DNA from: a virus
Direction: 5' to 3' (one strand)
DNA: 64,000 nt
Virus record (IMG/VR): IMGVR_UViG_3300027816_000055
Numbering within the stretch: the first letter of the stretch is position 1; every line of letters begins with the position of its first letter. The notes beneath the pieces were generated by a model that was given only the letters and a program-made list of their open reading frames with translations, was not told where the DNA came from and did not search any database. Shown here piece by piece: positions 50,876 through 64,000 of the stretch. A program made the translations under genes and the position numbers.

Positions 50876-51138
50876 ATATCTAATATATCCTTGGCAATAT
50901 CTCGTATCATAGGATCAGGATCACTATCCGCTATCGTTTCGATTTTGTCAACAACATTTTGATGTTCGATAAAAAAACTTAATCCCGCCAATGCTCCTTC
51001 TCTCACAGTTGGATCTTCATGCCGAAGAATTCTAAATAAGGTTGGAATTGCGGCGGGATCACCTTCGATACCCAAGTCTTCCGCATGATATGTAAGTATA
51101 TGCGGCTCCATATTTTCAATCTCTCTGTCGTAATTCAT
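50872..51138 (-). CDS. HEAT-repeat protein
   Basis: LRHEDPTVREGALAGL, DPDPMIRDIA. Confidence 0.75.
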   Translation of the reverse strand: MNYDREIENMEPHILTYHAEDLGIEGDPAAIPTLFRILRHEDPTVREGALAGLSFFIEHQNVVDKIETIADSDPDPMIRDIAKDILDI

Positions 51139-51146
51139 ATGCGCTG

Positions 51147-51175
51147 ATACTACGCCAGAGAGTCTATATGGTCAA
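51147..51175 (-). promoter_or_regulatory. Sigma70-like promoter
   Basis: TTGACC-N17-TAGTAT, 8 nt before the ATG. Confidence 0.65.
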
Positions 51176-51184
51176 TTTTTTATA

Positions 51185-51958
51185 TCAACTATACGTATTG
51201 TTATCAATTTTTGTATATGTCACAGATTTTGGTTCTTTAGTTACTCCTTGTTCCAAAAATCCAAAACTATAACTATATTTTCCAATATGTGCCAGTTTAA
51301 TTCGGGTATCACAATACAATTTGATTCCAGCACTTCGTATTCTATGACAAAATGCAAAATCTTCACCGATATATTCGTCATTTAATAACAATGGATAAAA
51401 ATAAGGATATACTTCGTATTGCCCACCCCAAATTTTTACTCTTGTCATCTTTTCATTTTTCACAATTGCCTCATATACACTACGATGTGTATACATAAAC
51501 CCAGTGGCAGCATATTTTATTTCATATAATCCGCCGCTTTCACCAAGCAAAACTTTTTTGTCAAGAAATTCAGTGGTTAATGCTGGCCAACCTTTGACAC
51601 TATACGGAGCACTAACAAATGGAAGGCCCAATTTAATTACCTTTTCAACATCATATGGCCAAAATGCTACATCCGCATCAATCCAAAACAAATGTTCGAA
51701 ACCTTCGTCTAATGCATCCTGTGCCATGGCGCATCTACCTTGATCAATCGCACTAAATCCATATTTTCTACGAACTGTGTAACCAAATGATTCCAATTTT
51801 CTTAATGCTTCATCCACGGCTGGTTCGATACTATGTGCAACAGGAACCAAAATAACGACGGAATTTGGTTTAAATGATTGTGGCAAAATAGCATTAACTT
51901 TTGCTTTTTTAGACGAGCGTAACTTCTGAAATAATCCAACGATGTAATCTATAATCAT
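51185..51958 (-). CDS. GT-A fold glycosyltransferase
   Basis: HLFWIDADV, ATGFMY, GEDFAFC. Confidence 0.85.
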   Translation of the reverse strand: MIIDYIVGLFQKLRSSKKAKVNAILPQSFKPNSVVILVPVAHSIEPAVDEALRKLESFGYTVRRKYGFSAIDQGRCAMAQDALDEGFEHLFWIDADVAFWPYDVEKVIKLGLPFVSAPYSVKGWPALTTEFLDKKVLLGESGGLYEIKYAATGFMYTHRSVYEAIVKNEKMTRVKIWGGQYEVYPYFYPLLLNDEYIGEDFAFCHRIRSAGIKLYCDTRIKLAHIGKYSYSFGFLEQGVTKEPKSVTYTKIDNNTYS

Positions 51959-51972
51959 AACAATAATAAGTA

Positions 51973-52461
51973 TTATACTGTTTTTGAATACTTCAAAACT
52001 TTATGTTCTCCTTCAAATTCTCTTATAACTTCTTGCTTATCAAATAGATGCTCAAATGGTGACATATAAGTATCAGCATCAAATTCTCCATTTACATGTG
52101 TAACATAAAATTCTCTGATATATGGAAGAAATAATTCATATGTCTTGGCACCACCGATGACAATCAATTCTCCTTTGAGTTGAACGTCAAGATTGACAAT
52201 ACTCATTGCATTGCGATAGGTATGCGCCGAATTATAAATAACATTATAATCATCTACGTGTTTATATGGAGTTCTCGTCAGTACAATTAAATTGCGATTT
52301 TTTAGTTTTGGTAACGTTGAAAAAGTCGTGTGTCCAACAACCAAAATTTTATTAGTTGTAAACTCTTTAAACCATCTGAAATCATCTTTTATACTTGGCC
52401 AAGGCAATTGATTTTTTTTCCCAATTGCTCTATTTTTATCCATTGCAATAATTGCTTTCAT
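51973..52461 (-). CDS. folA: Dihydrofolate reductase
   Basis: IGKKNQLPW, DFRWFK, VIGGAKTY, DTY. Confidence 0.92.
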   Translation of the reverse strand: MKAIIAMDKNRAIGKKNQLPWPSIKDDFRWFKEFTTNKILVVGHTTFSTLPKLKNRNLIVLTRTPYKHVDDYNVIYNSAHTYRNAMSIVNLDVQLKGELIVIGGAKTYELFLPYIREFYVTHVNGEFDADTYMSPFEHLFDKQEVIREFEGEHKVLKYSKTV

Positions 52462-52570
52462 ATATCTTTAATCAAATTTTTGAAACTAGTAGTTGTTAAT
52501 TTTGATGCTGTTGTGTTACTACATTTGTATTGTCACGATTTTCATTGAATATTATGTATTATATCTAAAA

Positions 52571-52610
52571 CAAAAAAACCGTCAACATATAAATAATGTT
52601 GACGGTTTTA
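52571..52610 (-). terminator. Intrinsic terminator at the end of the RNA cluster
   Basis: AAAACCGTCAACAT/ATGTTGACGGTTTT stem plus T-tract. Confidence 0.85.
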
Positions 52611-52617
52611 AATAAAT

Positions 52618-52709
52618 TGGCGGATAGAACAGGATTCGAACCTGTGGTACGCTTTTAAACGTACAGAAGTTTAGCAAACTTCCGCTTTCGGCCACTCAGC
52701 CATCTATCC
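52618..52709 (-). tRNA. trnS: tRNA-Ser(GCT), canonical
   Basis: GAAGT-TTGCTAA-ACTTC, long V arm, TTCGAAT, CCA. Confidence 0.95.
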
Positions 52710-52713
52710 ATTA

Positions 52714-52913
52714 GCTGTAAATTAATAGTTTGTTTTGACCTTGCAGCATTGACGCTTTTGACGCCCCATTCGGTTCGTGCTGCTACCATAGCACTGTTTC
52801 AGTCGTACCACTTTTCTTGATTTTCCTTGCATTCAAGCAATTACTTTTTAATATCAAGGCAACCGGCATGATCTTCAATCCGGCATTACCGTATCGGTAT
52901 ATCAATTTACAAC
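52714..52913 (-). ncRNA. Unknown 200-nt structured RNA
   Basis: 14-bp closing helix GTTGTAAATTGATA/TATTAATTTACAGC with internal hairpins; lies between two tRNAs. Confidence 0.6.
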
Positions 52914-52920
52914 TATAAAT

Positions 52921-53010
52921 TGGAGGAAAGAGAGGGATTCGAACCCCCGGAGGCTTTTAGACCCCTACGGTTTTCAAGACCATCGCCTTAAACCACTCAG
53001 CCATCTTTCC
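52921..53010 (-). tRNA. trnS: tRNA-Ser(TGA), canonical
   Basis: ATGGT-CTTGAAA-ACCGT, long V arm, CCA. Confidence 0.95.
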
Positions 53011-53028
53011 AATATTTTAAAAGAACAA

Positions 53029-53229
53029 TTATACGTCTTCTTCTGGTACAATTTTATCTGCTTTCAAACTCAAATCGCCACCCGCTTCTTCTACCACAGC
53101 TTTGATTTCACTTTCAAGCTCTTTGATTTTTTCTTTGTAACCAGCGGCTACATCCTTAAAATCTTTTTTGGTGAAGATTAATTTTTCCGTCAATTCGTAA
53201 ACCTTTTTTTCTGCTTCTGCTTTTGTCAT
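53029..53229 (-). CDS. Small coiled-coil protein
   Basis: MTKAEAEKKVYELTE... Confidence 0.6.
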   Translation of the reverse strand: MTKAEAEKKVYELTEKLIFTKKDFKDVAAGYKEKIKELESEIKAVVEEAGGDLSLKADKIVPEEDV

Positions 53230-53246
53230 ATGACAATACATAGTTG

Positions 53247-53570
53247 TTACATTGTCAATTCATTTGATTTTTTTACAGCAATTTCATATGACGAATTTAT
53301 TAATTTATACAAATCATTTGGATACATTCCATCCACACCATTTGTTTTATTAAATATATGATATTGCTCTGCTTCAAGATGATGAAGTGAGCATAACGTT
53401 ATACCATTTTCTATTACATAGCCTCCATTTGGCATTTCATGTCTATCTGTAATATGATGTGCATCAAGATTTTCAGTCGATCCACAAATTTTGCACCGAT
53501 TCTTATCTCGCGCAAATACATTTTTTGAGAAATTCTTGCGCCATTCCTTATGTGCTTGTTTCTTGCTCAT
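53247..53570 (-). CDS. HNH endonuclease
   Basis: CKICG..LDAHHI..NGITLCSLHH. Confidence 0.85.
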   Translation of the reverse strand: MSKKQAHKEWRKNFSKNVFARDKNRCKICGSTENLDAHHITDRHEMPNGGYVIENGITLCSLHHLEAEQYHIFNKTNGVDGMYPNDLYKLINSSYEIAVKKSNELTM

Positions 53571-53751
53571 CTTTTTTAATTTGTTTATATATTGCATCTG
53601 CTTCTTCTAAATAAAGATCTTGTTCGCATCTGGCCCATTCTTCCGCCGACATTCCATTTCCATAATATCCATGAAATTCAGCATGCATTTTCCAACCTTC
53701 TGCATATTTTTTTGCCAAATTATATGCAATATTTGTAATAACTTTATTCAT
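53548..53751 (-). CDS. Hypothetical protein
   Basis: 67-aa ORF. Confidence 0.5.
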   Translation of the reverse strand: MNKVITNIAYNLAKKYAEGWKMHAEFHGYYGNGMSAEEWARCEQDLYLEEADAIYKQIKKDEQETST

Positions 53752-53763
53752 ATTTTACTAAAT

Positions 53764-54147
53764 TGGTGGACGTGGAGGAAGTTGAATCCTCGTCTTTAAC
53801 ATTTTACCCATACCAGACTACATGTTTATTCATTTTGAATTTATTCGTGGCAATTCTAATAAATGAAAAACAAAATTGCCCTTAAGATTGCTCAATGTTC
53901 AACAATACAACACAATCCGATTATATCGTTTACTCTGATAAATGGCGTTTACATCAGTATCAGATATTCTGATATAAACGGGCTACCAGTAAATTAGGCA
54001 GCAACAGCGACTTCATCATAGTTGAAGTCATATGCAATTACATTGTCTTCTGCATTTAGGTTTTTAATGGATTTTTTTAGGAAGCCAACCATCATCTTCC
54101 ACATGCCTAGCATGACTAGTATATTAAATCGAAACCAGTACACGCCC
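53764..54147 (-). ncRNA. ssrA: tmRNA; tag reading frame 54053-53994 (AEDNVIAYDFNYDEVAVAA)
   Basis: GGGCGTG/CACGTCC acceptor with G3.U70, ACCA end, T-arm GAGG-ATTCAACTT-CCTC, tag ending in AA-TAA. Confidence 0.93.
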
Positions 54148-54153
54148 GTAAAA

Positions 54154-54342
54154 TTATATTTCTGTATTAATAGATTGTGCTTTTTCAGCATCAAAATTTT
54201 TTAATGCCTGATAAACTTCTTTCAGACACGAATACTCACTTTGATCCATACCCGGCATCACACTAACTCTTAAGTTAGAGTAATTTTTTTCTTTACAAAT
54301 TTTGTTTAATTGGTGTTTATACCAGTCATTGCTTTTTTTCAT
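54154..54342 (-). CDS. Hypothetical protein
   Basis: MKKSNDWY..., coupled to the Sir2 gene. Confidence 0.5.
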   Translation of the reverse strand: MKKSNDWYKHQLNKICKEKNYSNLRVSVMPGMDQSEYSCLKEVYQALKNFDAEKAQSINTEI

Positions 54343-55079
54343 ATTATTGATTCCTCTAATACTTGGCCACAACTTTCTCGTAAAACAAGTGCGGCAAACT
54401 TATCAAACGCAGTAGGAGTATTGTTGATAATTACCAACTTGCATTGTGGATTACGATCCAACAACAAATTGCATGCTGGCATAACCTGTAAACTACTGCC
54501 AATTGCAATCAATAAATCACATTCAGCAATTGCTTTTTGTGCCGTCTCAAAAACAACATCATCCAACCATTCATCAAACAATACCGTGTTTGGTCGAATA
54601 GTTCCAAATGTACAAATTGGACACTTAGGAATTCCTTTGTCATTGAATAAACCAAGATATTGAGAAATATCAAATGTATATTTACATCCATTGGTACATC
54701 TAAAAGATTTACAAGTGCCATGTAATTCTAAAACTTTCTTAGAACCAGCTTTTACATGTAATCCATCAATATTTTGAGTAACAACAGCTTTTAATTTTCC
54801 TTGCTCTTCTAATTTTGCAAGAGCAAAATGCGCTCTATTTGGTTCCTTATCAACCAATTTTAACAACCGTTCCTTGTAAAATAACGATAACAATGCTGGA
54901 TCTTTTCTAAGAGTACGACGAGAAAGAATATCTTCAGGTTCCATTCCTTCAAATGGTCCGCTTGTATACAGCCCACCAACACTACGAAAATCAGGAATTC
55001 CACTTTCGGTGCTAATTCCCGCCCCCGTAAATGCAACGATATTTGTTGCATTATCAATATAACTTTTTAATGTATTCAT
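54339..55079 (-). CDS. Sir2/CobB-type NAD-dependent protein deacylase
   Basis: TGAGISTESGIPDFR, TQNIDGLH, ELHG, Zn Cys pairs, GSSLQV. Start moved to MNTLK. Confidence 0.93.
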   Translation of the reverse strand: MNTLKSYIDNATNIVAFTGAGISTESGIPDFRSVGGLYTSGPFEGMEPEDILSRRTLRKDPALLSLFYKERLLKLVDKEPNRAHFALAKLEEQGKLKAVVTQNIDGLHVKAGSKKVLELHGTCKSFRCTNGCKYTFDISQYLGLFNDKGIPKCPICTFGTIRPNTVLFDEWLDDVVFETAQKAIAECDLLIAIGSSLQVMPACNLLLDRNPQCKLVIINNTPTAFDKFAALVLRESCGQVLEESII

Positions 55080-55084
55080 AAAAT

Positions 55085-55158
55085 TGGCAGGGGATGAAGG
55101 AATCGAACCTTCACTAAGAGATCCAAAGTCTCCTGCACTACCATTATGCAAATCCCCA
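55085..55158 (-). tRNA. trnQ: tRNA-Gln(TTG) copy 1
   Basis: GGAGA-CTTTGGA-TCTCT; CCA. Confidence 0.9.
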
Positions 55159-55265
55159 GTTAAAATTAACCTAACACAAACCGTGCTATTATACGCTAAA
55201 AAGCAATGCGGCACATGCGCCCAAACCCTTATGAAATACTTCTTTCGGGTGTTTGTGTTGAAATT

Positions 55266-55535
55266 GACACTCGCCGTAGCCGATGTTCTGTTCTATTCCT
55301 ACATTTATCTCAATATTTCTATTGGCAATCTGTTAAAGATTGCTGCTCCAACCTTGTCCTGATAACGTGCAGCACTACACTCGGACACTTTAGGATTACT
55401 GCTAATTTGTGGTATTAACGTGCGGTATGTCGTCGTATAACGCTTGAGCGCATCAAACGAAAGCACTCCCAATCATCTGCTGTGCAGCATCGAACTTCCT
55501 CTAAGATATAATCTCAGCGTAGGATCGCTTGTGTC
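55266..55535 (-). ncRNA. rnpB: Compact RNase P RNA
   Basis: CR-I GAGGAAGTTCGATG pairs with CR-V AACAGAACATCGGCT (P4 with bulged U). P1 GACAC/GTGTC; P2 ATCCTAC/GTAGGAAT; P3 CTGAGAT/ATCTTAG; CR-IV-like CCAATAG. Confidence 0.85.
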
Positions 55536-55540
55536 AAAAT

Positions 55541-55615
55541 TGGCTGCTCTTGATGGAATTGAACCACCATTCTCTCGTTCAAAGCGAGTAGTAATAGCCA
55601 TTATACTAAAGAGCA
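55541..55615 (-). tRNA. trnQ: tRNA-Gln(TTG) copy 2
   Basis: CTCG-CTTTGAA-CGAG; TGCTCTT/AAGAGCA acceptor; CCA. Confidence 0.85.
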
Positions 55616-55624
55616 ATATTAAAA

Positions 55625-55700
55625 TGGTGCCAGAATTTGGATTTGAACCACGACAAAAAGATTCAAAGTCTTTTGTGCTAAACCGTTACACCATCGGGCA
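55625..55700 (-). tRNA. trnQ: tRNA-Gln(TTG) copy 3, weak T stem
   Basis: AAAGA-CTTTGAA-TCTTT; mismatches in the T and acceptor stems; CCA. Confidence 0.75.
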
Positions 55701-55709
55701 ATTAAAAAA

Positions 55710-56003
55710 TCAGTCGTATTCCGCTTCTTCATATCCATTTTCTTTTAGATATTTTTCTATCTTTTTACATAAAGCTTTACTAAGCTTTTTTTGAAAATCT
55801 AATGATATAAATTCCGAATCATATGTTGCTTGAAATTTTTTCATGAAAACACGCGGCAACTGTTCTGGAAACTCAAACGATGAATCACTCCAATCATGAT
55901 GATAAATAACATTTTTATTTTCATCAAGAACAACTAAAATTTCTCCAGCTATATTTATAGCATCGTGATCGCACGTATTATTTAAATAATAAAATTTTTT
56001 CAT
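55710..56003 (-). CDS. Hypothetical protein
   Basis: 97-aa ORF between tRNAs. Confidence 0.6.
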   Translation of the reverse strand: MKKFYYLNNTCDHDAINIAGEILVVLDENKNVIYHHDWSDSSFEFPEQLPRVFMKKFQATYDSEFISLDFQKKLSKALCKKIEKYLKENGYEEAEYD

Positions 56004-56010
56004 AAAAATT

Positions 56011-56096
56011 TGGTGCCAGCGATTGGATTTGAACCAATGATTCCATTGTTTGGATTGCTGTTAATACCTTTATGATCTAGATATATTTCACTGGCA
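56011..56096 (-). ncRNA. tRNA-like RNA with acceptor stem, T arm and CCA but no recognisable D or anticodon arm
   Basis: TGCCAGT/GCTGGCA, ATTGG-TTCAAAT-CCAAT, internal ACAGCAA. Confidence 0.6.
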
Positions 56097-56104
56097 TTAT
56101 AAAT

Positions 56105-56179
56105 TGGAGCGCGGAATGGGACTTGAACCCACAACAATTTGCTTGGAAGGCAAATACTCTGCCATTGAGCTACCCGCGC
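56105..56179 (-). tRNA. trnG: tRNA-Gly(TCC) copy 1
   Basis: TTTGC-CTTCCAA-GCAAA; CCA. Confidence 0.93.
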
Positions 56180-56189
56180 ATTTTAAATT

Positions 56190-56264
56190 TGGAGCGTCAT
56201 GTCGGAATCGAATCGACTTGTTCAACTTGGAAGGATGATGCCTAATCCAATCGGCCAATGACGC
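56190..56264 (-). tRNA. trnG: tRNA-Gly(TCC) copy 2
   Basis: TCATC-CTTCCAA-GTTGA; A-C mismatch at the T-stem closing pair; CCA. Confidence 0.85.
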
Positions 56265-56270
56265 ATAAAT

Positions 56271-56364
56271 AGGTGAGACAAAAAATCATTTGTCTGCTGG
56301 ATTAGCTCCCCAGCTTATATTAGTTTTACAACTAATCATAGCTAATAGTGTTTTATTTTCACCT
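56271..56364 (-). ncRNA. Multi-stem tRNA-like element (possible permuted tRNA)
   Basis: AGGTG/CACCT closure, ATTAG/CTAAT arm, GCTGG/CCAGC arm, then a 7-bp AGACAAA/TTTGTCT hairpin. Confidence 0.4.
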
Positions 56365-56370
56365 TTAAAG

Positions 56371-56469
56371 TGGCGGATGATGTCCGTACTGCCCGGACCT
56401 TCGACATTCATATAGAAGCGAATTTAGTTTTCAAGACTAACGAGGCCAGCTTATATCCCCCTATCATCC
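56371..56469 (-). tRNA. trnS: Non-canonical tRNA-Ser(TGA)
   Basis: GGATGAT/ATCATCC-G-CCA; TTAGT-CTTGAAA-ACTAA; A8; T loop GGCAGTA. Confidence 0.75.
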
Positions 56470-56587
56470 ATGTCAATTAAAATCGTTACAAAAGCTCACT
56501 AGTGGAATTAATGTCATCGCCAATACAATTGTAACTAGTTCTTTAGTTTAATATACAACGTCTTATATATCGTTTCAAGAACGAAAA

Positions 56588-56677
56588 TGGCGGAAGTTGA
56601 GGGAATTGCACCCCCACCGGTTTTACCCGGCACTGTTTAGCAAACAGTTCTGACAACCTAATATTCAGCTAACTTCC
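56588..56677 (-). tRNA. trnS: Non-canonical tRNA-Ser(GCT)
   Basis: ACTGT-TTGCTAA-ACAGT; A8; T loop TGCAATT; CCA. Confidence 0.85.
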
Positions 56678-56682
56678 AGAAA

Positions 56683-56760
56683 TGGTGGACACAGAGGGGA
56701 TTCGAACCCCTAATATTCTCATTGCAAGTGAGATGCATTGCCAATTGATGCTACTGGCCC
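56683..56760 (-). tRNA. trnA: tRNA-Ala(TGC) with a bulged acceptor stem
   Basis: TCTCA-CTTGCAA-TGAGA; G3.U70; one extra T in the 3' strand. Confidence 0.85.
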
Positions 56761-56770
56761 ATTTTAAAAT

Positions 56771-56856
56771 TGGTAGGTGTGGTAGGATTCGAACCTACAA
56801 GGACTTCTCGTTTTAAGCAAGATGTTTCTTCCAATTTCACTTTCGTCCACACACCC
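56771..56856 (-). tRNA. trnL: tRNA-Leu(TAA), atypical (short V region, long 8-9 linker)
   Basis: TCTTG-CTTAAAA-CGAGA; GGGTGTG/CACACCT-A-CCA. Confidence 0.85.
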
Positions 56857-56870
56857 ATTATTAAATTAAC

Positions 56871-56922
56871 AAGATACATTTGTTTATTTTTGCTAAATAA
56901 TTTTTGTTGCTGTATGTATCTT
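56871..56922 (-). repeat. Stem+ACAGCAA element copy A
   Basis: AAGATACAT-ACAGCAA...ATGTATCTT; flank identical to copy B. Confidence 0.75.
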
Positions 56923-56927
56923 AAAAT

Positions 56928-57012
56928 TGGTAGTCATGACCCGATTCGAACGTGCAAAGGATATGATATTTTGAGTATCACGGTTGTTCCAGTTTCCCTT
57001 ATCCACATGACC
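56928..57012 (-). tRNA. trnL: tRNA-Leu(CAA), atypical (short V region, long 8-9 linker)
   Basis: TGATA-CTCAAAA-TATCA; GGTCATG/CATGACT-A-CCA. Confidence 0.75.
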
Positions 57013-57035
57013 ATTATCCACATGACCATTATCCA
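56999..57035 (+). repeat. 15-bp tandem repeat (about 2.5 copies) containing TTATCCACA DnaA-box matches
   Basis: TTATCCACATGACCA x2 followed by TTATCCA. Confidence 0.85.
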
Positions 57036-57038
57036 AAT

Positions 57039-57206
57039 TTACGTTTTTAGTACTTTGAGTACGAGTTTTGCTTTTTTTAATTTTTCTTGAGTTGCCGCAA
57101 ACTCTTCGGCACCAACATTACGTTTGAAGTTTGCACTATTCAATTTTCTTTCTAGAAACTTGATATAAAGTTCTTCGTGTGCAATACGTTCTTTATTTGT
57201 TTTCAT
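57039..57206 (-). CDS. Small basic protein (55 aa, not in the ORF track)
   Basis: MKTNKERIAHEELYIKFLERKLNS... Confidence 0.6.
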   Translation of the reverse strand: MKTNKERIAHEELYIKFLERKLNSANFKRNVGAEEFAATQEKLKKAKLVLKVLKT

Positions 57207-57252
57207 AATGTTGCGGTTTTATTTGAAGGATAACCGCAAACCTTATGCTAAG

Positions 57253-57627
57253 TTACTTTACTTCAATATACTTTGTTTTTGCTTCCGGCGTTTTCGGCAC
57301 CGTCAACTTTAACACGCCGTCTTCTAGTTTAGACTCGATTTTATCGAAATCGACATAAGGCAATGCAAACTCTCTCACATAACTTGCTCTTGCATTTTTT
57401 GCAGATACCTTAATTACACCCTTAGTGACTTCAACTTTAATTTCGTCACGTTTGAAGCGGGGCAACTCAATTTCAATCGTATATTGAGATTCAGTTTCCG
57501 CAAAATCAGTTGGTCTCCAATTGCGACTCAATTGAAATGATGGTTCTTTCCAGAAGTCATCATGCAATCTATCAAACAACTGAAATATATCTGTCATTCC
57601 ACTGCCATATCTTTGAATATTATTCAT
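57253..57627 (-). CDS. Hsp20/alpha-crystallin small heat shock protein
   Basis: IELPRFKRDEIKV, YVREFALP, SKLEDGVLKLTVPK; SD AAGGA. Confidence 0.92.
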   Translation of the reverse strand: MNNIQRYGSGMTDIFQLFDRLHDDFWKEPSFQLSRNWRPTDFAETESQYTIEIELPRFKRDEIKVEVTKGVIKVSAKNARASYVREFALPYVDFDKIESKLEDGVLKLTVPKTPEAKTKYIEVK

Positions 57628-57723
57628 ATTTTTATTTCCTTTATTTATATTTCACAAATAAAGTATTTGGATATGTTCTCTACACAAGATATTATCCAAG
57701 ATAATACTTTATGTGAAAAAAGT

Positions 57724-57798
57724 TGGTGGACCTGAGCGGGATCGAACCGCTAACCTCTGAGTGCAAATCAGATGTGTTACCATTAGCACCACAAGCCC
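57724..57798 (-). tRNA. trnA: tRNA-Ala(TGC) copy 2
   Basis: TCTGA-TTTGCAC-TCAGA; G3.U70; CCA. Confidence 0.93.
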
Positions 57799-57825
57799 AT
57801 TATATAAAAATATAATGTAATAAAT

Positions 57826-58060
57826 ACGGCAGGAGTTCCTGCTCCCAGCATAATTTGCAGGTAGGCATATCTACTGAGCCATCTGCGACCAGATACGGTT
57901 TGTCTGTGATTTCGGATCTTGTAGTATTTCCCCCGACGCACGAATTTGCAGAATCTCTACTTCAGGATTTTCACCTTGCCTCAATTCTCACCATTCTACA
58001 TGGTAGACCAACGGGCTCTCGCTTATGCAGTCTAATTTGGACATTAGGTGTCCCCGACAT
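57826..58060 (-). ncRNA. Unknown structured RNA, about 235 nt
   Basis: GC-richer inter-tRNA stretch with at least six hairpins and no credible ORF. Confidence 0.55.
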
Positions 58061-58073
58061 TATTACATAAAAA

Positions 58074-58157
58074 TGGTAGGCATGATAGGACTTGCACCTA
58101 CACGGATTTCTCCATTGATTTCTAAGACCAACGCGGCTTCTTTTACGCCACATGCCC
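58074..58157 (-). tRNA. trnL: Non-canonical tRNA-Leu(TAG)
   Basis: TTGGT-CTTAGAA-ATCAA; T loop TGCAAGT; D loop lacks GG. Confidence 0.88.
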
Positions 58158-58171
58158 ATTATTAAATTAAC

Positions 58172-58279
58172 AAGATACAACAATTTACAGTTTTGCTTCT
58201 GACCTGCATTTTTTTCATGGTCCGCAGACAAGACGATTCATTTCCTATGATAATTTATATTTGTTGCTGTGTGTATCTT
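58172..58279 (-). repeat. Stem+ACAGCAA element copy B
   Basis: AAGATACA-C-ACAGCAA...TGTATCTT. Confidence 0.75.
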
Positions 58280-58288
58280 AAAAATTAC

Positions 58289-58404
58289 GAGATGTGTTTT
58301 TATAATTTGAGTTTCAAGCTCAATGCCTTACCATTAGGCGAATTTTCCACACGGAAAATATTGGATTTGAACCAATAATTTATTTGTATTGCTGCGCACA
58401 TCTC
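58289..58404 (-). ncRNA. Circularly permuted tRNA-Ser(TGA)
   Basis: Order is T arm, closed 7-bp acceptor, D arm, anticodon arm, all inside a GAGATGTG/CACATCTC helix. Confidence 0.75.
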
Positions 58405-58410
58405 TGAAAT

Positions 58411-58488
58411 TGGTCGGCAAGACAGGATTCGAACCTGCGACCTTCTGCTCCCAAAGCAGACGCACTAGCCAAGCTGTGCTACTTGCCG
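58411..58488 (-). tRNA. trnP: tRNA-Pro(TGG), canonical
   Basis: TCTGC-TTTGGGA-GCAGA; CCA. Confidence 0.95.
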
Positions 58489-58496
58489 ATAAAAAA

Positions 58497-58572
58497 TGGT
58501 CGGGATGGAGAATTTTGCAATCTCAACCTCCTGTCTCCAAAACAGGCCGTCTACTTTTGACATTACATCCCG
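58497..58572 (-). tRNA. trnP: Non-canonical tRNA-Pro(TGG)
   Basis: CCTGT-TTTGGAG-ACAGG; T loop TGCAAAA; D loop AAAAGTA. Confidence 0.85.
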
Positions 58573-58579
58573 ATAAAAT

Positions 58580-58654
58580 TGGTAGGCGGTGAAGGATTTG
58601 AACCTCCGACAAACTGAGTGTAAGTCAGCTACTCTACCCCTGAGCTAACCGCCC
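58580..58654 (-). tRNA. trnV: tRNA-Val(TAC)
   Basis: GCTGA-CTTACAC-TCAGT; CCA. Confidence 0.93.
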
Positions 58655-58808
58655 ATTTTTTAATAAATTTAAGGATTTGTGTACCTATCGTTGGTAGCCC
58701 AATTTTCATTGAACCGGCGTCTCCGATTTCCCACGGCTCGCCTCTACGGTTTTGATTATACGCTCAAAATTTCTAAATGCGTTACTTACTATCTTCAATG
58801 TGCTAACT

Positions 58809-58927
58809 ATCTTAGCACTGATTTCATCGTTGTCAACAGCTTTGTTGAGTTTTTTGTTTCTTACGTTTCGCTCAACCTCGCAGTCTCAACTGTGGATACA
58901 TCTTACACCATCCGATCCAAACGTCAA
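58809..58927 (-). promoter_or_regulatory. Tandem sigma70-like promoters heading the tRNA cluster
   Basis: TTGACG-N16-TAAGAT (58927-58900) and TTGACA-N16-TAAGAT (58836-58809). Confidence 0.6.
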
Positions 58928-58941
58928 CAACTTTCGCAAAC

Positions 58942-58974
58942 AAAAAACCCGTTGGTTTTTAGGCCAACGGGTTT
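58942..58974 (-). terminator. Intrinsic terminator
   Basis: AAACCCGTTGG/CCAACGGGTTT plus T-tract. Confidence 0.85.
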
Positions 58975-59126
58975 AAACTTACGAAAATGTCCGTTGGTTA
59001 GCCTAGTACCAAACTAGGTTGTGACGCAGCACTAGCAAGTGCTGGCCCTACTACGGATAATTGTACAAATGTATTCATTGTAAGAATAAATATTTTCAAT
59101 TTTTCGAAACGTTCATTTTTTTTTAA

Positions 59127-59279
59127 TTACTTTGCAGAGGTCTTTGCAACAACCTTCTTGGTGACACTTGCAGTCTTAGTCTTTGCAGGTGTCTTGGCTA
59201 CCGTCTTGGTTGCCTTCTTGGTAGCTGTCTTGGTTGTCTTAGTTGCCTTTGTGGTCTTTGTTGTCTTTTGTGTTGCCAT
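59127..59279 (-). CDS. Histone H1-like Lys/Thr/Ala-rich protein (50 aa, not in the ORF track)
   Basis: MATQKTTKTTKATKTTKTATKKATKTVAKTPAKTKTASVTKKVVAKTSAK. Confidence 0.75.
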   Translation of the reverse strand: MATQKTTKTTKATKTTKTATKKATKTVAKTPAKTKTASVTKKVVAKTSAK

Positions 59280-59422
59280 AACTTATTTTTTCTTTCTATT
59301 GTTTTACGATTCTTACGAATCAGATTAATCAATATATAACTGAAACTATTTTATTACATTTATTTTATTTTGGAATATTTGATATGTTTCTAAATCACAT
59401 CTACATTTTCTTTTAATTTTTA

Positions 59423-60424
59423 TTAACGTATTTTTGGATTTCCGTGAATCGTAAATTTCCAATACTCGGAAAATGGACCTTCTTCGTTTTTGACGTGTTC
59501 TATATCACTTATTTCAAATCCACTTCGTTTAAGTAATTTCCAATATCGTGATGAGCGAACTTGATTCATAGTACCTATATCTAGTGGTGCATAACGATTC
59601 ACCCATTCTCCAAGTTTATGTATTAATTTTTTATAAATTTCAATTTGATTTTTTCTACCAATCACAGGAGATCTTTTAATTTGAGACTGATGTGTTGTAA
59701 ATGATTGTTCTCCTGAAGTTAATGCAACTTCATGTGATCCATCTTCATTCTTTATTAGAATCATCGTATAATCACCGGCCACAATTTTATCTATAGGTTC
59801 CATTCCAATACTAGTTAAGTATTCTAATTCATCATTTACAGATTCTTCCAATTCTTCCACTTGCTCATTCATCTGCAAAATGCCTATTGGATAGTTTGTA
59901 ACAATATCATCTAATTTTTCAGCAAGCGTTGTTTTATCACTCTCCTGTAATTTAGTACGTAAATACTCACGTAAACTTAAAAGATGTTTGCATAGACCGG
60001 GACGCAAATATGGATTCGTTGTTTTTGGAAAATTGCCATTACATTTATTTAAACTATTATTGCCCATTTCGCCTGCTTCTTTGTCGTTATTTGCGTAGGC
60101 GTATTTATACCGATAATCTTCACACGTACAATCTACTTTGCAAGGAATATCAATGGAACTTGCACTGCTATTTTCTTTTTTAAATGTGATTCTGCCTTTG
60201 TGCCCGATACCATTTGGTTTTTCAGGACGTGGTGTAATATGACTAAGATCACTCTTATAACTAAAATTCCAATATTCGTTTGTCGAGTCGGCGCGTATTG
60301 GCAATGATTGCGTTCTCATTTTCAATGCGCGTTTTTTTCTTTTTGGCTCAGAAAAATTCATGAGTTCTTTAAATGATAAAATCTCATTTAATACTCGTTT
60401 AGCGATGTTCGACAGCAAAATCAT
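59423..60424 (-). CDS. SWIM zinc-finger-containing protein
   Basis: VDCTCEDY...GLCKHL. Confidence 0.7.
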   Translation of the reverse strand: MILLSNIAKRVLNEILSFKELMNFSEPKRKKRALKMRTQSLPIRADSTNEYWNFSYKSDLSHITPRPEKPNGIGHKGRITFKKENSSASSIDIPCKVDCTCEDYRYKYAYANNDKEAGEMGNNSLNKCNGNFPKTTNPYLRPGLCKHLLSLREYLRTKLQESDKTTLAEKLDDIVTNYPIGILQMNEQVEELEESVNDELEYLTSIGMEPIDKIVAGDYTMILIKNEDGSHEVALTSGEQSFTTHQSQIKRSPVIGRKNQIEIYKKLIHKLGEWVNRYAPLDIGTMNQVRSSRYWKLLKRSGFEISDIEHVKNEEGPFSEYWKFTIHGNPKIR

Positions 60425-60471
60425 ACATATAAATAGTTAAAAAAACTATAATATGTCTATTTATTAGAGTT

Positions 60472-60972
60472 ATGATTACACCAACAAGTTTTAAAATAAA
60501 AGTCAGCGGCGAGCCAAAAACCATCGACACTGTTATCGACACCGATCCTACAAAAGATAATATTGAAAATTATACTAAAGATTTGTTTGAACCAAGAACA
60601 AACAATAGATTTTTGGTAAAAATCTTAGATGATCAAAATAATGATATTGTTCCATCTTTTTTGATTAAGGAATTTAATCGTCCAGAATTGACGAGTGCTA
60701 TGGCCACGTCTTTTTCATGTATTATTTATGACAGTGTAACACAACGTGTAGTTGCATTGTTAATGCCATTTTTAATGCCGGTTTTAGAAAACAAAATTAA
60801 AGTAATTTTGCAAATTACAGATCCAATTGGCAATATTATTGAAACATGGACATTTAAAAATGTCACATTAAAAAAGGTTTCGCCATCGTTACTCAATTGG
60901 TCCGATGATGATGTTTCTTTGATTTATGCTGAATTTAGAGTAAGCTATTCAGATATAACTATCGAAGGTTAA
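60472..60972 (+). CDS. Tail tube protein, T4 gp19-like (orphan copy)
   Basis: FEPRTNNRFLV...DPIGNIIETWTFKN...LNWSDDD. Confidence 0.75.
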   Translation: MITPTSFKIKVSGEPKTIDTVIDTDPTKDNIENYTKDLFEPRTNNRFLVKILDDQNNDIVPSFLIKEFNRPELTSAMATSFSCIIYDSVTQRVVALLMPFLMPVLENKIKVILQITDPIGNIIETWTFKNVTLKKVSPSLLNWSDDDVSLIYAEFRVSYSDITIEG

Positions 60973-61451
60973 ACGGGTATCTTTTTGAGCTTACTGATAG
61001 GCAGATTATAGCAATCAGCCTTAAATTTCCATTTGTACGAAGAACTTTCGTCAATGGTTCCCTTTTTGTTTAATTGAGCATGCTTATAAAAATAATCTTT
61101 ACTACAGCCGCCTAGTATCCATGCTCTACTAAAATCTTCCATTATGCGAACAAAAAAATATACGTCGCATTTTTGACGTATATTGTATGCGGCAACACTA
61201 CAATAATAATGAGGTTGTGGTGGACTTGTGCAAGTTTTTGTTTTAACATCTATTTTGATATCATCTTTAATAATATCATAATCATATGTGTTTTTCGACT
61301 TGCCACCAATATATTCGTTTACCAACAATTCTCCCAAAAAACCATAAACATTTCCCTTGCCGTCTGTAATGCTATTGTTCAGAACTCCCATTTCTTTTGA
61401 TTTACGCTTGGCAACAGAAATTTGTTTTTTAGTTGGAATTACTTCGATCAT
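60969..61451 (-). CDS. PD-(D/E)XK-like nuclease
   Basis: GFLGE...YDYD...IDVKT. Confidence 0.55.
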   Translation of the reverse strand: MIEVIPTKKQISVAKRKSKEMGVLNNSITDGKGNVYGFLGELLVNEYIGGKSKNTYDYDIIKDDIKIDVKTKTCTSPPQPHYYCSVAAYNIRQKCDVYFFVRIMEDFSRAWILGGCSKDYFYKHAQLNKKGTIDESSSYKWKFKADCYNLPISKLKKIPV

Positions 61452-61563
61452 CTTTTTCCAATTCTTCTTCTAGTCTAGAATTGATTCCACAAAATCGTGC
61501 AATCAATACTGCGACAACAACATATGCACAAATTAATATTGCTCCAATTAATACGTATTTCAT
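61429..61563 (-). CDS. Small membrane protein (44 aa)
   Basis: MKYVLIGAILICAYVVVAVLIARFCG... Confidence 0.45.
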   Translation of the reverse strand: MKYVLIGAILICAYVVVAVLIARFCGINSRLEEELEKDDRSNSN

Positions 61564-61913
61564 TTCTTTTTCTTTTTAGATGACTCTTGATTCTTAATTT
61601 CACCTGCACACTGCTTGCCCAGTTCAGTTAACCCAAACTTTGGTTCTCCGTTTTCATCAACACCAGTGCATTCTAAAATACCATCTTTCACTAACTTATC
61701 AACAGTCTGCTTGACTTCCTCTAGAGCAATCATATTATAAATTTCAATAGCTTCATCTCTTGAAACTTCCTCACTGTCCATAATGAGTTGCAACGACATT
61801 TCGTATTCTCTTTGTTTAATTTGTTCTTCGCTAATATCAAACTCTAATTTTGAACAATGTTCAAGTAGTTGATCGACAGTGCCTGTGAATGTTGTGTTGA
61901 TGTTTTCGTTCAT
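61560..61913 (-). CDS. Hypothetical protein, possible C-terminal winged helix
   Basis: VDKLVKDGILEC...KFGLTELGK. Start moved to MNEN. Confidence 0.6.
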   Translation of the reverse strand: MNENINTTFTGTVDQLLEHCSKLEFDISEEQIKQREYEMSLQLIMDSEEVSRDEAIEIYNMIALEEVKQTVDKLVKDGILECTGVDENGEPKFGLTELGKQCAGEIKNQESSKKKKK

Positions 61914-61921
61914 ATATAAAT

Positions 61922-61996
61922 TGGTGCGCCCAGCGAGATTCGAACTCGCAAATATAGTTTTAGAGACCACTGTTTTAACCGTTAAACTATGGACGC
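61922..61996 (-). tRNA. Amber suppressor tRNA (anticodon CTA)
   Basis: GTGGT-CTCTAAA-ACTAT; GCGTCCA/TGGGCGC-A-CCA; TTCGAAT. Confidence 0.92.
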
Positions 61997-62236
61997 ATTA
62001 ATAGTAGCTTCATTCAGATCATCAATAACGACGTTTACATTTTTGAATTTTAAACTTCCCTTGGTGTGCGAGCTATCAGGAGTTTCTTTTGTGGTCCAAC
62101 CAACATTTGCATTGACATGGTTGACATAATAGGTCGTTCCTTTAGTTTTTAACACCCACATTGGGATATTATTGTCAGTCAAGTGCGCTTTGTTGAAGTG
62201 AAATACAACTTCTTTGCAATTCTATAATGTAGTCAT
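61982..62236 (-). CDS. Hypothetical phage protein with an in-frame TAG at codon 5
   Basis: AAGGA-N8-ATG ACT ACA TTA TAG AAT TGC AAA GAA GTT GTA TTT CAC TTC AAC AAA continues into MWVLKTKG...KETPDSSHTKGSLK. Confidence 0.7.
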
Positions 62237-62270
62237 ATGATGTATCCTTATTACGTCCAATAGCATAGAG

Positions 62271-62447
62271 TCACTTTGCGTCGTTGTCAATCTTTTTCTG
62301 TGCCGACACCCAATCAGGTAAATGCTTTGTAACCCATTCTACAAGCGCAGTCTCAAATCCAATATCATATTTCTTTTTTTCGCTTTCAATCCATTTGTGC
62401 TTCATTATTTCTTCACGAATTAATATAAATTTTTGATATAAAGACAT
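62271..62447 (-). CDS. DUF4032-like small protein (58 aa, not in the ORF track)
   Basis: REEIMKHKWIESEK...DIGFETALVEWV.KH. Confidence 0.75.
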   Translation of the reverse strand: MSLYQKFILIREEIMKHKWIESEKKKYDIGFETALVEWVTKHLPDWVSAQKKIDNDAK

Positions 62448-62468
62448 AGACTTTTTATATATATAATT

Positions 62469-62690
62469 ATGAAATCGAAAATATTACTTTTAATTACAAC
62501 GGCCCTTCTTTTTGGATGTGCAAATGAAAAAACCATTAGCATTGATGGTCACACCTACACATTGGTTCGTGCAGGGCAAACAAATGCCAATGGTATTAAT
62601 GATTTGGAATTATGGGAACGTAAAGGAGTCACAAATAGATACTATACTCCATCATTGGATGGAAAATCTATGCATTCGATTATGAAATAA
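62469..62690 (+). CDS. Putative lipoprotein
   Basis: MKSKILLLITTALLFGC lipobox. Confidence 0.6.
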   Translation: MKSKILLLITTALLFGCANEKTISIDGHTYTLVRAGQTNANGINDLELWERKGVTNRYYTPSLDGKSMHSIMK

Positions 62691-63414
62691 TATCTGACTC
62701 GTCAATCTCTTCAAGCGCATGATAAATTATAGATTTTTTATCATCGTATTTGGTTGATAACAACTCCATTTTATACAATTTATCGCTAACACTACGTTTA
62801 TTAACGTATCGTTCGTAATAATGATTGTAATACATTTCTTTATCTATTTCGTCTAAGCGACTTTCCAATTCTCCATATACAGGAGTATAGTGTGTCAGAT
62901 AATGTGGTTTTGTAACTTCTTTCAACATCCATGGAAATTTAAAATAATAATGTGGTCGAAAATATTTTGTATCGTTTTGAAATAATTTCTTTTCATTTTC
63001 GCACGAACAGTTATACAAACTGGAATGATACCACAAATATTTTTCAATTGACTTAATTTTTTCAATATCAGATGCTCTTTTTGCTTCTGTATAATAAAAT
63101 TCGAAACGTGGATCTGTTGCTGATTTCAAGTGTGCGTGTTTCTCGAAACACGTTTTTTTAGTGTGCGTAATAAAATCTTTTTTGGGATGATACGCTTTGT
63201 TTTGCCCAAGAAAATTTATTACTTCCAAAATTTTTGGATAATCACGACGTTGCTTAACATCATCACGCAATTCCAAACTACGAACATAACCGTGATGTAT
63301 TGGCGTATCCAGTTTAATTGGAACAATATTATATTTTTGTCGGTATAATATATCTGCTTCGCGCATCAACGCCAACGCTCGCTTTTTCTCTTTTTCTTTT
63401 TTATGTAGGTCCAT
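62680..63414 (-). CDS. Hypothetical protein
   Basis: 244-aa ORF. Confidence 0.65.
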   Translation of the reverse strand: MDLHKKEKEKKRALALMREADILYRQKYNIVPIKLDTPIHHGYVRSLELRDDVKQRRDYPKILEVINFLGQNKAYHPKKDFITHTKKTCFEKHAHLKSATDPRFEFYYTEAKRASDIEKIKSIEKYLWYHSSLYNCSCENEKKLFQNDTKYFRPHYYFKFPWMLKEVTKPHYLTHYTPVYGELESRLDEIDKEMYYNHYYERYVNKRSVSDKLYKMELLSTKYDDKKSIIYHALEEIDESDIIS

Positions 63415-63416
63415 AA

Positions 63417-63671
63417 TTAGTCATTTTTAACAACAGATGAAAAATTACTTAATTCAACTGTTTTTGGTTCTTTATTAATTGTTTCTACATGCTTTCGTAT
63501 ATATCTCAAAAACAATAATGCTTTGTCCTCGGCCAATAAGGTTGCTTTTCCAATATCCGCAAGCGGCACTGGAAATTCAAATCCACATTCAGTGGAATAA
63601 ATAAACTCTCCCTCACGAAAATATACAAATTTAACTCGCTTGTTGTCACTGACCATGTTTTTGATGTTCAT
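63417..63671 (-). CDS. Hypothetical protein
   Basis: 84-aa ORF directly after a promoter. Confidence 0.65.
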   Translation of the reverse strand: MNIKNMVSDNKRVKFVYFREGEFIYSTECGFEFPVPLADIGKATLLAEDKALLFLRYIRKHVETINKEPKTVELSNFSSVVKND

Positions 63672-63677
63672 ATGTTT

Positions 63678-63705
63678 AATATATCAGATTTTTGTTGTGT
63701 GTCAA
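63678..63705 (-). promoter_or_regulatory. Sigma70-like promoter
   Basis: TTGACA-N16-TATATT with extended TG, 6 nt before the ATG. Confidence 0.6.
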
Positions 63706-63708
63706 TAT

Positions 63709-63741
63709 AAAAAAAAGACGATATCATAATGATATCGTCTT
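63709..63741 (-). terminator. Intrinsic terminator
   Basis: AAGACGATATCA/TGATATCGTCTT plus T-tract. Confidence 0.85.
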
Positions 63742-63748
63742 GATAAAT

Positions 63749-63822
63749 TGGTGGTTCTCCAAGGAATTGAGCCTTGTTCTATACAATGTCAATGTATTAT
63801 TCTACCGTTAAACTAGAGAACC
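63749..63822 (-). tRNA. trnV: tRNA-Val(GAC)
   Basis: ATACA-TTGACAT-TGTAT; T loop CTCAATT; CCA. Confidence 0.88.
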
Positions 63823-63826
63823 ATTA

Positions 63827-63940
63827 GAAGGATTTCACGACGAGCTAATTAGACTCAACAACAACATTTTAATTTTGTCTTTCGTTCCACATTAACACGT
63901 TAACCAAAGGGAATCGAACCCCCGTGATGTGTCTTTCTTC
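63827..63940 (-). ncRNA. Possible permuted tRNA-like element
   Basis: T arm GGGG-TTCGATT-CCCT near the 5' end and an anticodon-like arm near the 3' end, closed by TCACG/CGTGA; no CCA. Confidence 0.45.
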
Positions 63941-63945
63941 AAAAT

Positions 63946-64000
63946 TGGAGCACCGTGTTGGATTTGAACCAACGATTTTAGAGTTTTGCAGACTCTTGCC
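63946..64000 (-). tRNA. trnC: tRNA-Cys(GCA), 5' end outside the window
   Basis: AGAGT-CTGCAAA-ACTCT; T arm; CCA. Confidence 0.9.

Follow-up and report, generated by a model that had tools for sequence, protein, structure and literature searches.

A 64,000-nucleotide (nt) stretch of viral DNA (IMG/VR record IMGVR_UViG_3300027816_000055; hereafter, the window) was found to carry, within a block of RNA genes, a 270-nt ribonuclease P (RNase P)-like RNA that we identify by comparative analysis as homologous to class-A RNase P RNA, with the whole catalytic domain (C-domain) kept. The block spans 6–11 kb within 52618–64000, with all of its components on the minus strand. The initial annotation had hypothesized that it is one private system for tRNA processing and decoying, composed of an RNase P RNA whose specificity domain (S-domain) is reduced, a transfer-messenger RNA (tmRNA), 20 tRNAs, an amber suppressor, permuted tRNA-like RNAs, and other structured RNAs. 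The co-oriented cluster itself was confirmed, with the tmRNA, the 20 tRNAs, tRNA(CUA), and every other listed component at its place. Our analysis suggests that the block is probably a translation-support island, a mosaic of separately gained and lost RNA modules to which the ribozyme would add 5′-processing together with host RnpA. The coordinates of all features are collected in Table 1.

The sequence from 55535 to 55266 reads, in order, P1, P2, P3, GAGGAAGUUCGAUG, and later AGAUAAAUG-GUAGGA-AUAGAACAGAAC-AUCGGCU. Helices were written on an alignment (A1) of 46 distinct copies of the RNA, in which 94.0% of the cells were paired, compared with 70.2% after shuffling and 28–46% when the partners were slid. 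P4, a pseudoknot of 8 bp with a bulged U, was 100% paired (n = 46) and is flanked by GAGGAA (CR-I) and ACAGAA (CR-V); its three variable pairs showed compensatory changes only (CG/AU/GC/UA). P2, P5, P15, and P16 were 97.5%, 100%, 95.7%, and 97.8% paired, respectively, with double changes in five of the six pairs of P2, covariation in all four pairs of P5, and covariation in the 3-bp P15. The pattern used to collect the copies carried N at the variable positions of P4 and P2, so that pairing at these positions was not selected for. A conserved (C/A)GGGU(U/A) adjoins P15, at the position of the E. coli GGU that pairs with the tRNA 3′ CCA, and an invariant AA before P15 is the equivalent of A248/A249. 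The 3′ motif AGAURAAUG-N-ACAGAA-N-CGGCU, which runs through J18/2, P2, J2/4, and P4, occurred in every family member, the window copy included. Its generalised form matched E. coli rnpB at nt 328–359 and more than 120 bacterial genomes, and all 18 loci checked among the latter corresponded to the 3′ end of an RF00010 match. The assignment to class A is based on these covarying helices, the GGU, AA, and ACAGAA signatures, and the 3′ motif common to rnpB.

The full S-domain (P7–P14, CR-II, and CR-III) is not present between the two strands of P5. It is replaced by an 81-nt stub, in which a short stem and GGGAG are accompanied by a variable hairpin that a covarying helix closes and by a CR-III-like segment written as GUUAAUACC or GUUANNACC. 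The description of the element as an RNase P RNA with a reduced S-domain among co-oriented tRNA genes was thus upheld by the covariation and by the stub. In the relatives, the length of the stub ranges from almost nothing to approximately 150 nt, and the distance from CR-I to J18/2 decreases to 117 nt. The ribozyme of locus L003 has an arm of approximately 150 nt in the stub, and those of L005, L008, L009, and L065 have an insertion of approximately 110 nt at the position of P18. These insertions are at sites where the periphery of cellular RNase P RNAs also varies.

Several results weigh against this identification. Rfam found no RNase P family for the ribozyme in a 401-nt slice, either at the gathering threshold (100 bits for RF00010) or at E ≤ 10, and gave no match to an RNase P family in 20 homologous loci. 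The folding z-score of the RNA was weak (−1.29), and an nhmmer profile of the phage family hit E. coli rnpB at the correct place with a non-significant E value of 35. Rfam searches of 51000–64000 at the gathering threshold and at E ≤ 10 yielded neither RNase P nor YrlA, GOLLD/ROOL, or any ribozyme family.

At least 75 copies, from phages or metagenomes, make up the family of this RNA. An exact 26-mer search returned eight IMG/VR stretches from related phages, and a degenerate 3′-core pattern returned 74 metagenome contigs (lake, sediment, soil, and sludge); in all, the family is carried by these 74 and by nine viral contigs. The strict phage 3′ motif had no match in 185,579 cellular genomes. 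Among more remote relatives, Microcystis phage Mel-JY01, Flavobacterium phage immuto, and LR756508 (484 kb) did not have the motif. One family copy was located in a cultured phage, Stenotrophomonas phage vB_SmaS-DLP_6 (DLP6; KU682439.2), at approximately 105,770–106,020 (L091:2300-2545). It lies in an unannotated gap between a hypothetical coding sequence and tRNA-Arg, and its P1, P2, P4, and P5 are readable by eye. A search of the literature in full text found no description of a virus-encoded RNase P RNA. A GOLLD RNA (RF02032, 183 bits) was observed at L022:413-871, on a metagenome contig that also has a tRNA array and a mini RNase P RNA.

The setting of the ribozyme was examined in 76 loci, where 470 neighbouring tRNAs were on the same strand and one was on the opposite strand. 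A tRNA started 15–40 nt after the ribozyme in 18 of 47 loci. In the window, three tRNA-Gln(UUG) genes flank the RNA on both sides, and the start of the ribozyme lies 5 nt past the CCA of the middle gene. The co-orientation of the neighbours and this spacing indicate that the ribozyme belongs to a tRNA polycistron. No rnpA (Ribonuclease_P) gene was found in a related contig of 303 kb that is 89% complete or in two other related contigs (G003, G001, and G002). Any protein partner would thus be that of the host, and the ribozyme probably borrows host RnpA. The word "private" used for the system fits the RNA, which is the phage's own, but probably not the protein.

The lack of a phage rnpA, together with conservation of the RnpA-binding side of the C-domain (P2–P3, J18/2, and P15), could also be explained if the RNA were not an enzyme but a regulatory RNA or a mimic that titrates host RnpA or RNase P-binding factors and slows the maturation of host tRNAs. 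We consider this unlikely, because residues that serve only chemistry or substrate binding (the bulged U of P4, AA, GGU, and ACAGAA) are invariant in approximately 46 diverged copies and because the RNA is located among the phage's own tRNAs, which require processing. The conservation of these residues argues for catalysis, which we infer for the family.

Four tRNAs of the window carry G55, and three of them have a canonical gene of identical anticodon nearby. The elbow of this type has A18/G55 in place of G18/U55. Among 310 unique tRNAs from all fetched loci, those with U55 had GG in the D loop in 224 cases and AG in four, whereas those with G55 had GG in seven cases and AG without GG in 28. 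The coupling between positions 18 and 55 was significant (Fisher p = 5e-27), with the reservation, which also counts against our interpretation, that the test ignores kinship among the tRNAs. The altered-elbow class that had been proposed from the window is therefore borne out by covariation over many loci. Two GC-rich contigs with a ribozyme have arrays almost entirely of the G55 type, namely L019 (3.2 kb; 15 of 15 tRNAs) and L076 (1.5 kb; 8 of 9). Because A18 and G55 change together and because whole arrays are of this type, the A18/G55 tRNAs are interpreted as working variants, not products of decay.

The possibility that the non-canonical tRNAs and tRNA-like RNAs are functionless, decaying duplicates was considered in this context. 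They have low or no scores with standard tRNA finders, and they adjoin canonical copies with the same anticodon. Same-anticodon sets were found for Pro, Ser(GCU), Ser(UGA), Gly(UCC), and Ala(UGC), in addition to Gln(UUG) in three copies, and in each pair one gene scored high and the other low on the Rfam tRNA model, as expected from the canonical and non-canonical pairs recognized initially. Decay would not be expected to produce the joint change to A18 and G55, to preserve acceptor stems with seven of seven pairs and an encoded CCA, to retain orthologues in several relatives (for the A18/G55 tRNA-Pro(UGG), in L002, L007, L008, and L009), or to generate entire arrays such as those of L019 and L076; nor does it agree with a permuted RNA that keeps five helices at approximately 78% identity and whose anticodon stem shows a compensatory change. 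An origin as pseudogenes is therefore very unlikely.

The CRISPR-associated Schlafen nuclease CbCash cuts tRNA between U54 and U55, and a single mutation of U54 or U55 abolishes its cleavage (PMC13462974). Since the swap removes the U54–U55 dinucleotide needed by T-loop cutters, the G55 tRNAs would plausibly escape nucleases of this kind, as judged from the published enzyme.

The RNA at 58289–58404 is the only one that is clearly permuted. It consists, in order, of an 8-bp closing helix, a 20-nt linker, a T arm, a loop-sealed acceptor stem, a D arm, and an anticodon-like arm. Its single homologue, in L002, is the one to which the identity and compensatory change given above refer, and all five helices are kept in it. 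The anticodon loop differs between the two (CUUGAAA in the window and CUAAACA in L002), which speaks against both a decoding function and a decoy for a specific anticodon nuclease. The RNA at 56011–56095 proved to be tRNA-like but not permuted; it has no D or anticodon arm and is conserved in L003 and L001. The decoy role thus gained no positive evidence from either RNA. RF02553 (YrlA) gave no match at E ≤ 10, and neither TROVE (Ro60) nor RtcB was found in G003, G001, or G002, which include the 303-kb relative.

Of the other RNAs, that at 52714–52913, between two tRNA-Ser genes, was substantiated by a 16-bp closing helix, four compensatory pairs, and conservation in four relatives. The 235-nt non-coding stretch at 57826–58060 had no homologue in any fetched locus. 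The leader element elB has ends in common with the element at 56860–56930, and its alignment carries no covariation information. For a candidate family defined by a helix and ACAGCAA, enrichment of the heptamer in the window was rejected (14 occurrences compared with 9.5 expected), and the family is represented by three to four longer similar copies.

The initial annotation had proposed that co-occurrence of these elements be checked across related genomes, and the outcome was independent distribution. The closest relatives have the same gene order and 77–84% identity in an island protein. The window has the ribozyme, G55 tRNAs, and the permuted RNA. L003 has the ribozyme, no permuted RNA, and no G55 tRNAs in 20 kb, under relaxed criteria as well. 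L001 has four G55 tRNAs and neither the ribozyme nor the permuted RNA, and L002 has two G55 tRNAs and the permuted RNA with no ribozyme. The tmRNA of L001 follows 153 nt after tRNA-Gln, and the ribozyme motif was absent throughout its 89-kb contig and throughout the 56-kb contig of L002. A further point on the opposing side is that L001 and L002 represent parts of genomes (31% and 16% complete, respectively), so that a ribozyme gene may lie elsewhere in them; its absence holds for the syntenic site and these contigs. All four combinations of presence and absence occur among close relatives, and this indicates that the ribozyme, the G55 tRNAs, and the permuted RNA are modules assorting independently. 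SIR2 was also missing at the syntenic site in L001, where it is gone together with the ribozyme.

These results bear on the proposal that a ribozyme without an S-domain is specifically needed to mature the altered-elbow and permuted RNAs, which would form a nuclease-resistant pool plus decoys. All elements do lie in one co-oriented block between terminator-like hairpins, the reduced S-domain is the elbow-reading part of bacterial RNase P, and the nearly all-G55 arrays of L019 and L076 carry the ribozyme, although the loci were selected for carrying it. Against these points stand the double dissociation between L003 and L001/L002 and the absence of G55 tRNAs from 18 of the 28 ribozyme-bearing arrays with at least five tRNAs. 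In addition, the conserved residues of the stub are the same in all-G55 and all-U55 arrays, apart from GC content, and the anticodon loop of the permuted RNA varies as described. One matched processing system is accordingly improbable.

Independent distribution is compatible with a facultative functional interaction. The phage ribozyme and host RnpA could constitute a relaxed-specificity RNase P that matures unconventional substrates, namely the rewired-elbow tRNAs (which would evade T-loop nucleases), the permuted RNAs with sealed acceptors, and the ribozyme's own ends, even when the host RNase P has been shut down or disfavours them. Facultative coupling would explain why the modules also occur apart. 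We regard this version as doubtful.

In the mosaic that we favour, the phage RNA would derive from a bacterial class-A RNase P RNA and would be transcribed within the tRNA polycistron. Together with host RnpA, it would most likely provide added 5′-leader cleavage of relaxed specificity for the closely packed precursor tRNAs and the tmRNA. All 20 tRNAs would be working tRNAs, four of which use the alternative A18/G55 elbow. The permuted RNA, the tRNA-like RNA at 56011–56095, and the 200-nt RNA would be separate small RNAs. The HNH endonuclease gene within the island suggests a plausible route or driver for the shuffling of modules among relatives.

Table 1. Features of the RNA-gene block and its surroundings, with positions in the window
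Feature	Position	Strand	Evidence or remark
RNase P-like RNA, 270 nt; class-A catalytic domain with stub for S-domain	55266–55535	−	Covariation, 46 homologues
P1	55535–55527 / 55274–55266
P2	55524–55519 / 55302–55297
P3	55517–55501
CR-I and P4 5′ strand	55501–55488
P4 3′ strand	55285–55278
P5	55487–55484 / 55402–55399
S-domain stub	55483–55403		81 nt
P15/P16	55398–55347		GGU at 55353–55351
Two extra hairpins	55343–55311
J18/2	55310–55303
tRNA-Pro(UGG), A18/G55	58497–58572	−	Own finder only: 7/7 acceptor pairs and CCA; T loop UGCAAAA, D loop without GG
tRNA-Leu(UAG), A18/G55	58074–58157	−	ARAGORN and own finder; T loop UGCAAGU
tRNA-Ser(GCU), G55	56588–56677	−	Rfam 35.5 bits, relaxed ARAGORN, own finder; T loop UGCAAUU
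tRNA-Ser(UGA)-like, G54 G55	56371–56469	−	Own finder: 7/7 acceptor, 5/5 T stem; missed by ARAGORN and Rfam; T loop GGCAGUA
Circularly permuted tRNA-like RNA	58289–58404	−	Minimum free energy fold and L002 homologue; partial Rfam tRNA match, 32 bits, 58279–58348
tRNA-like RNA, not permuted	56011–56095	−	Own finder: acceptor stem, T arm, CCA; non-tRNA core
200-nt structured RNA between two tRNA-Ser genes	52714–52913	−	Four homologues
Leader element elB, upstream of tRNA-Leu(UAG)	58161–58274	−	nhmmer homologues in L001, L002, L003, L007
Leader element between the two tRNA-Leu genes	56860–56930	−
Non-coding stretch, 235 nt	57826–58060	−	Without Rfam match
tmRNA	53764–54147	−	Rfam RF00023, 124.7 bits, full length; ARAGORN
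tRNA-Ser(GCU), canonical	52618–52709	−	ARAGORN and Rfam
tRNA-Ser(UGA), canonical	52921–53010	−	ARAGORN and Rfam
Three tRNA-Gln(UUG), spanning 55085–55699	55625–55699, 55541–55615, 55085–55158	−
tRNA-Leu(UAA)	56771–56856	−	Relaxed ARAGORN/Rfam, own finder
tRNA-Leu(CAA)	56928–57012	−	Relaxed ARAGORN/Rfam, own finder
tRNA-Pro(UGG), canonical	58411–58488	−	ARAGORN and Rfam, 66.8 bits
tRNA(CUA), candidate amber suppressor	61922–61996	−	ARAGORN and Rfam, 65.7 bits
Partial tRNA, cut by window end	63949–64000	−
Candidate transcription unit	52575–58974	−	Consensus scan only
Terminator-like hairpins, enclosing most of the island	58974–58945 and 52609–52575		Consensus scan only
Promoter-like sites	58927–58900 and 58836–58809		Consensus scan only
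SIR2-family protein gene, within island	54339–55079	−	Pfam PF02146, E = 6.7e-48
HNH endonuclease gene, within island	53247–53597
Hsp20 gene, among tRNA genes	57253–57627
DHFR gene, just beyond island	51973–52461

The 20 tRNA genes of 52618–64000 were obtained with default ARAGORN (14), with relaxed ARAGORN or Rfam (three), and solely with a finder for acceptor stem, T arm, and CCA (two); the remaining one is the gene cut by the end. CCA is encoded in 13 of the 14 default ARAGORN tRNAs. The tmRNA was identified by its match to the RF00023 model, its tRNA-like ends, and a tag reading frame; the tag predicted by ARAGORN is AEDNVIAYDFNYDEVAVAA, which ends in VAVAA before the stop. The tRNA-Leu(CAA) and tRNA-Leu(UAA) are without a long variable arm, and relaxed ARAGORN mislabels them as Thr and Met. 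In both, the region following position 7 is enlarged, and it could form pairs with the variable region (GGAC/GUCC and GGAUA/UAUCC), and a 15-mer, TGGATAATGGTCATG, is tandemly duplicated just upstream of the pair (56771–57012). The candidate suppressor tRNA(CUA) is conserved in L002, L003, and L007. In this region (61922–62240), the open reading frame (ORF) upstream of the tRNA has ATG, four codons, and TAG but also an internal in-frame ATG after the TAG, so that amber readthrough is not required for this ORF. Recoding of TAG was rejected, as the ORF lengths agree with translation table 11. The ORF statistics of the window match the standard code, and the 56 ORFs of at least 100 amino acids end in TAA (37), TGA (17), and TAG (2).

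The window has a G+C content of approximately 31% and contains phage genes for baseplate and SbcCD-like proteins. The baseplate wedge protein shares 41% identity with its counterpart in Microcystis phage Mel-JY01 and 36% with those of Flavobacterium "immuto" phages, and the related IMG/VR contig that is 89% complete has a length of 303,564 bp. From the relatives of the baseplate protein and the size of this contig, we conclude that the source is an uncultured freshwater jumbo myovirus-like phage of about 300 kb.

RNase P RNA is generally taken to be a housekeeping ribozyme of all cells. The phage RNA resembles the E. coli M1 RNA encoded by rnpB (RF00010) in the topology of P1–P5, the P4 pseudoknot with its bulged U, GAGGAA (CR-I), AA before P15, the P15/P16 internal loop (AAAYAG and GGGU(U/A)), AGAURAAUG (J18/2), and ACAGAA-P4-CGGCU. 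It differs from E. coli rnpB in having the 81-nt stub, which is as short as approximately 35 nt in relatives, in place of an S-domain of approximately 160 nt and no P8, P9, P13, or P14. Compared with class-A RNase P RNAs, its J3/4 is one nt shorter, its P4 is one bp longer, and its P18 is optional; moreover, it is undetected by RF00010 and is encoded by phages within tRNA arrays. By comparison, a 241-nt class-A RNase P RNA at L101:3702-3942, on a 36% GC contig of a metagenome-assembled genome of an uncultured bacterium, still reaches 126 bits on RF00010, unlike the phage family. Its size is unusually low for a bacterial RNase P RNA, and it could represent a bridge form or have been mis-binned.

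When isolated, the C-domain of the E. coli RNA remains catalytic in vitro, with reduced efficiency (PMC5839562), and a naturally reduced RNase P, type T, is known from Pyrobaculum (PMC13462272). The phage family is similar to type T of Pyrobaculum/Thermoproteaceae and to engineered M1 RNAs reduced to the C-domain in that the catalytic domain is kept and most of the S-domain is gone. Type T belongs to archaea and acts with proteins of archaeal type, whereas the phage RNA is viral with bacterial class-A signatures. This natural family of at least 75 copies would show the extent to which selection can reduce a bacterial-type RNase P, to approximately 200 nt in total, by keeping the catalytic half and discarding most of the substrate-reading half. 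The copy in DLP6 belongs to a cultured phage–host pair and makes the family directly testable.

The use of phage tRNA sets to replace, or to evade, those host tRNAs that defence nucleases cut has been described (van den Berg et al. 2023, PMC10264068), also for PARIS and T5 tRNA-Lys (PMC11464382). The window shares with these sets a phage tRNA pool in which some copies are altered at positions that nucleases would recognize. The changes in the published sets are in the anticodon loop, and those in the window are in the elbow pair 18/55 of the D and T loops. The A18/G55 tRNAs would thus represent a working alternative to a near-universal tertiary contact of tRNA, and this alternative incidentally lacks the site at which a published T-loop defence nuclease cuts.

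YrlA-type Y RNAs (RF02553) have been found in phages (Chen et al. 2014, PMC4201824). The permuted RNA resembles YrlA in its loop-sealed acceptor and in the order of T arm, acceptor, and D arm on a terminal helix. It differs in having no RF02553 match, no Ro60 gene in the 303-kb relative, an extra anticodon-like arm, and a terminal helix at the position of the variable arm. In the permuted tRNA genes of Cyanidioschyzon merolae, the 3′ half precedes the 5′ half and the acceptor ends are joined by a short linker; their maturation needs cutting and rejoining at a bulge-helix-bulge motif by a splicing endonuclease and a ligase. The permuted RNA of the window has the same order of halves and joined acceptor ends, with the differences that it contains an extra linker of 20 nt, that its anticodon is not conserved in L002, and that no RtcB was found.

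The modules of the island do not form a matched pair, and each is to be annotated and studied separately. The tRNA operon of phage T4 contains the small stable RNAs C and D and homing endonuclease genes; we know of no RNase P RNA or tmRNA gene in T4. The island of the window is similar to the T4 cluster as a phage tRNA operon with small stable RNAs and homing endonuclease genes.

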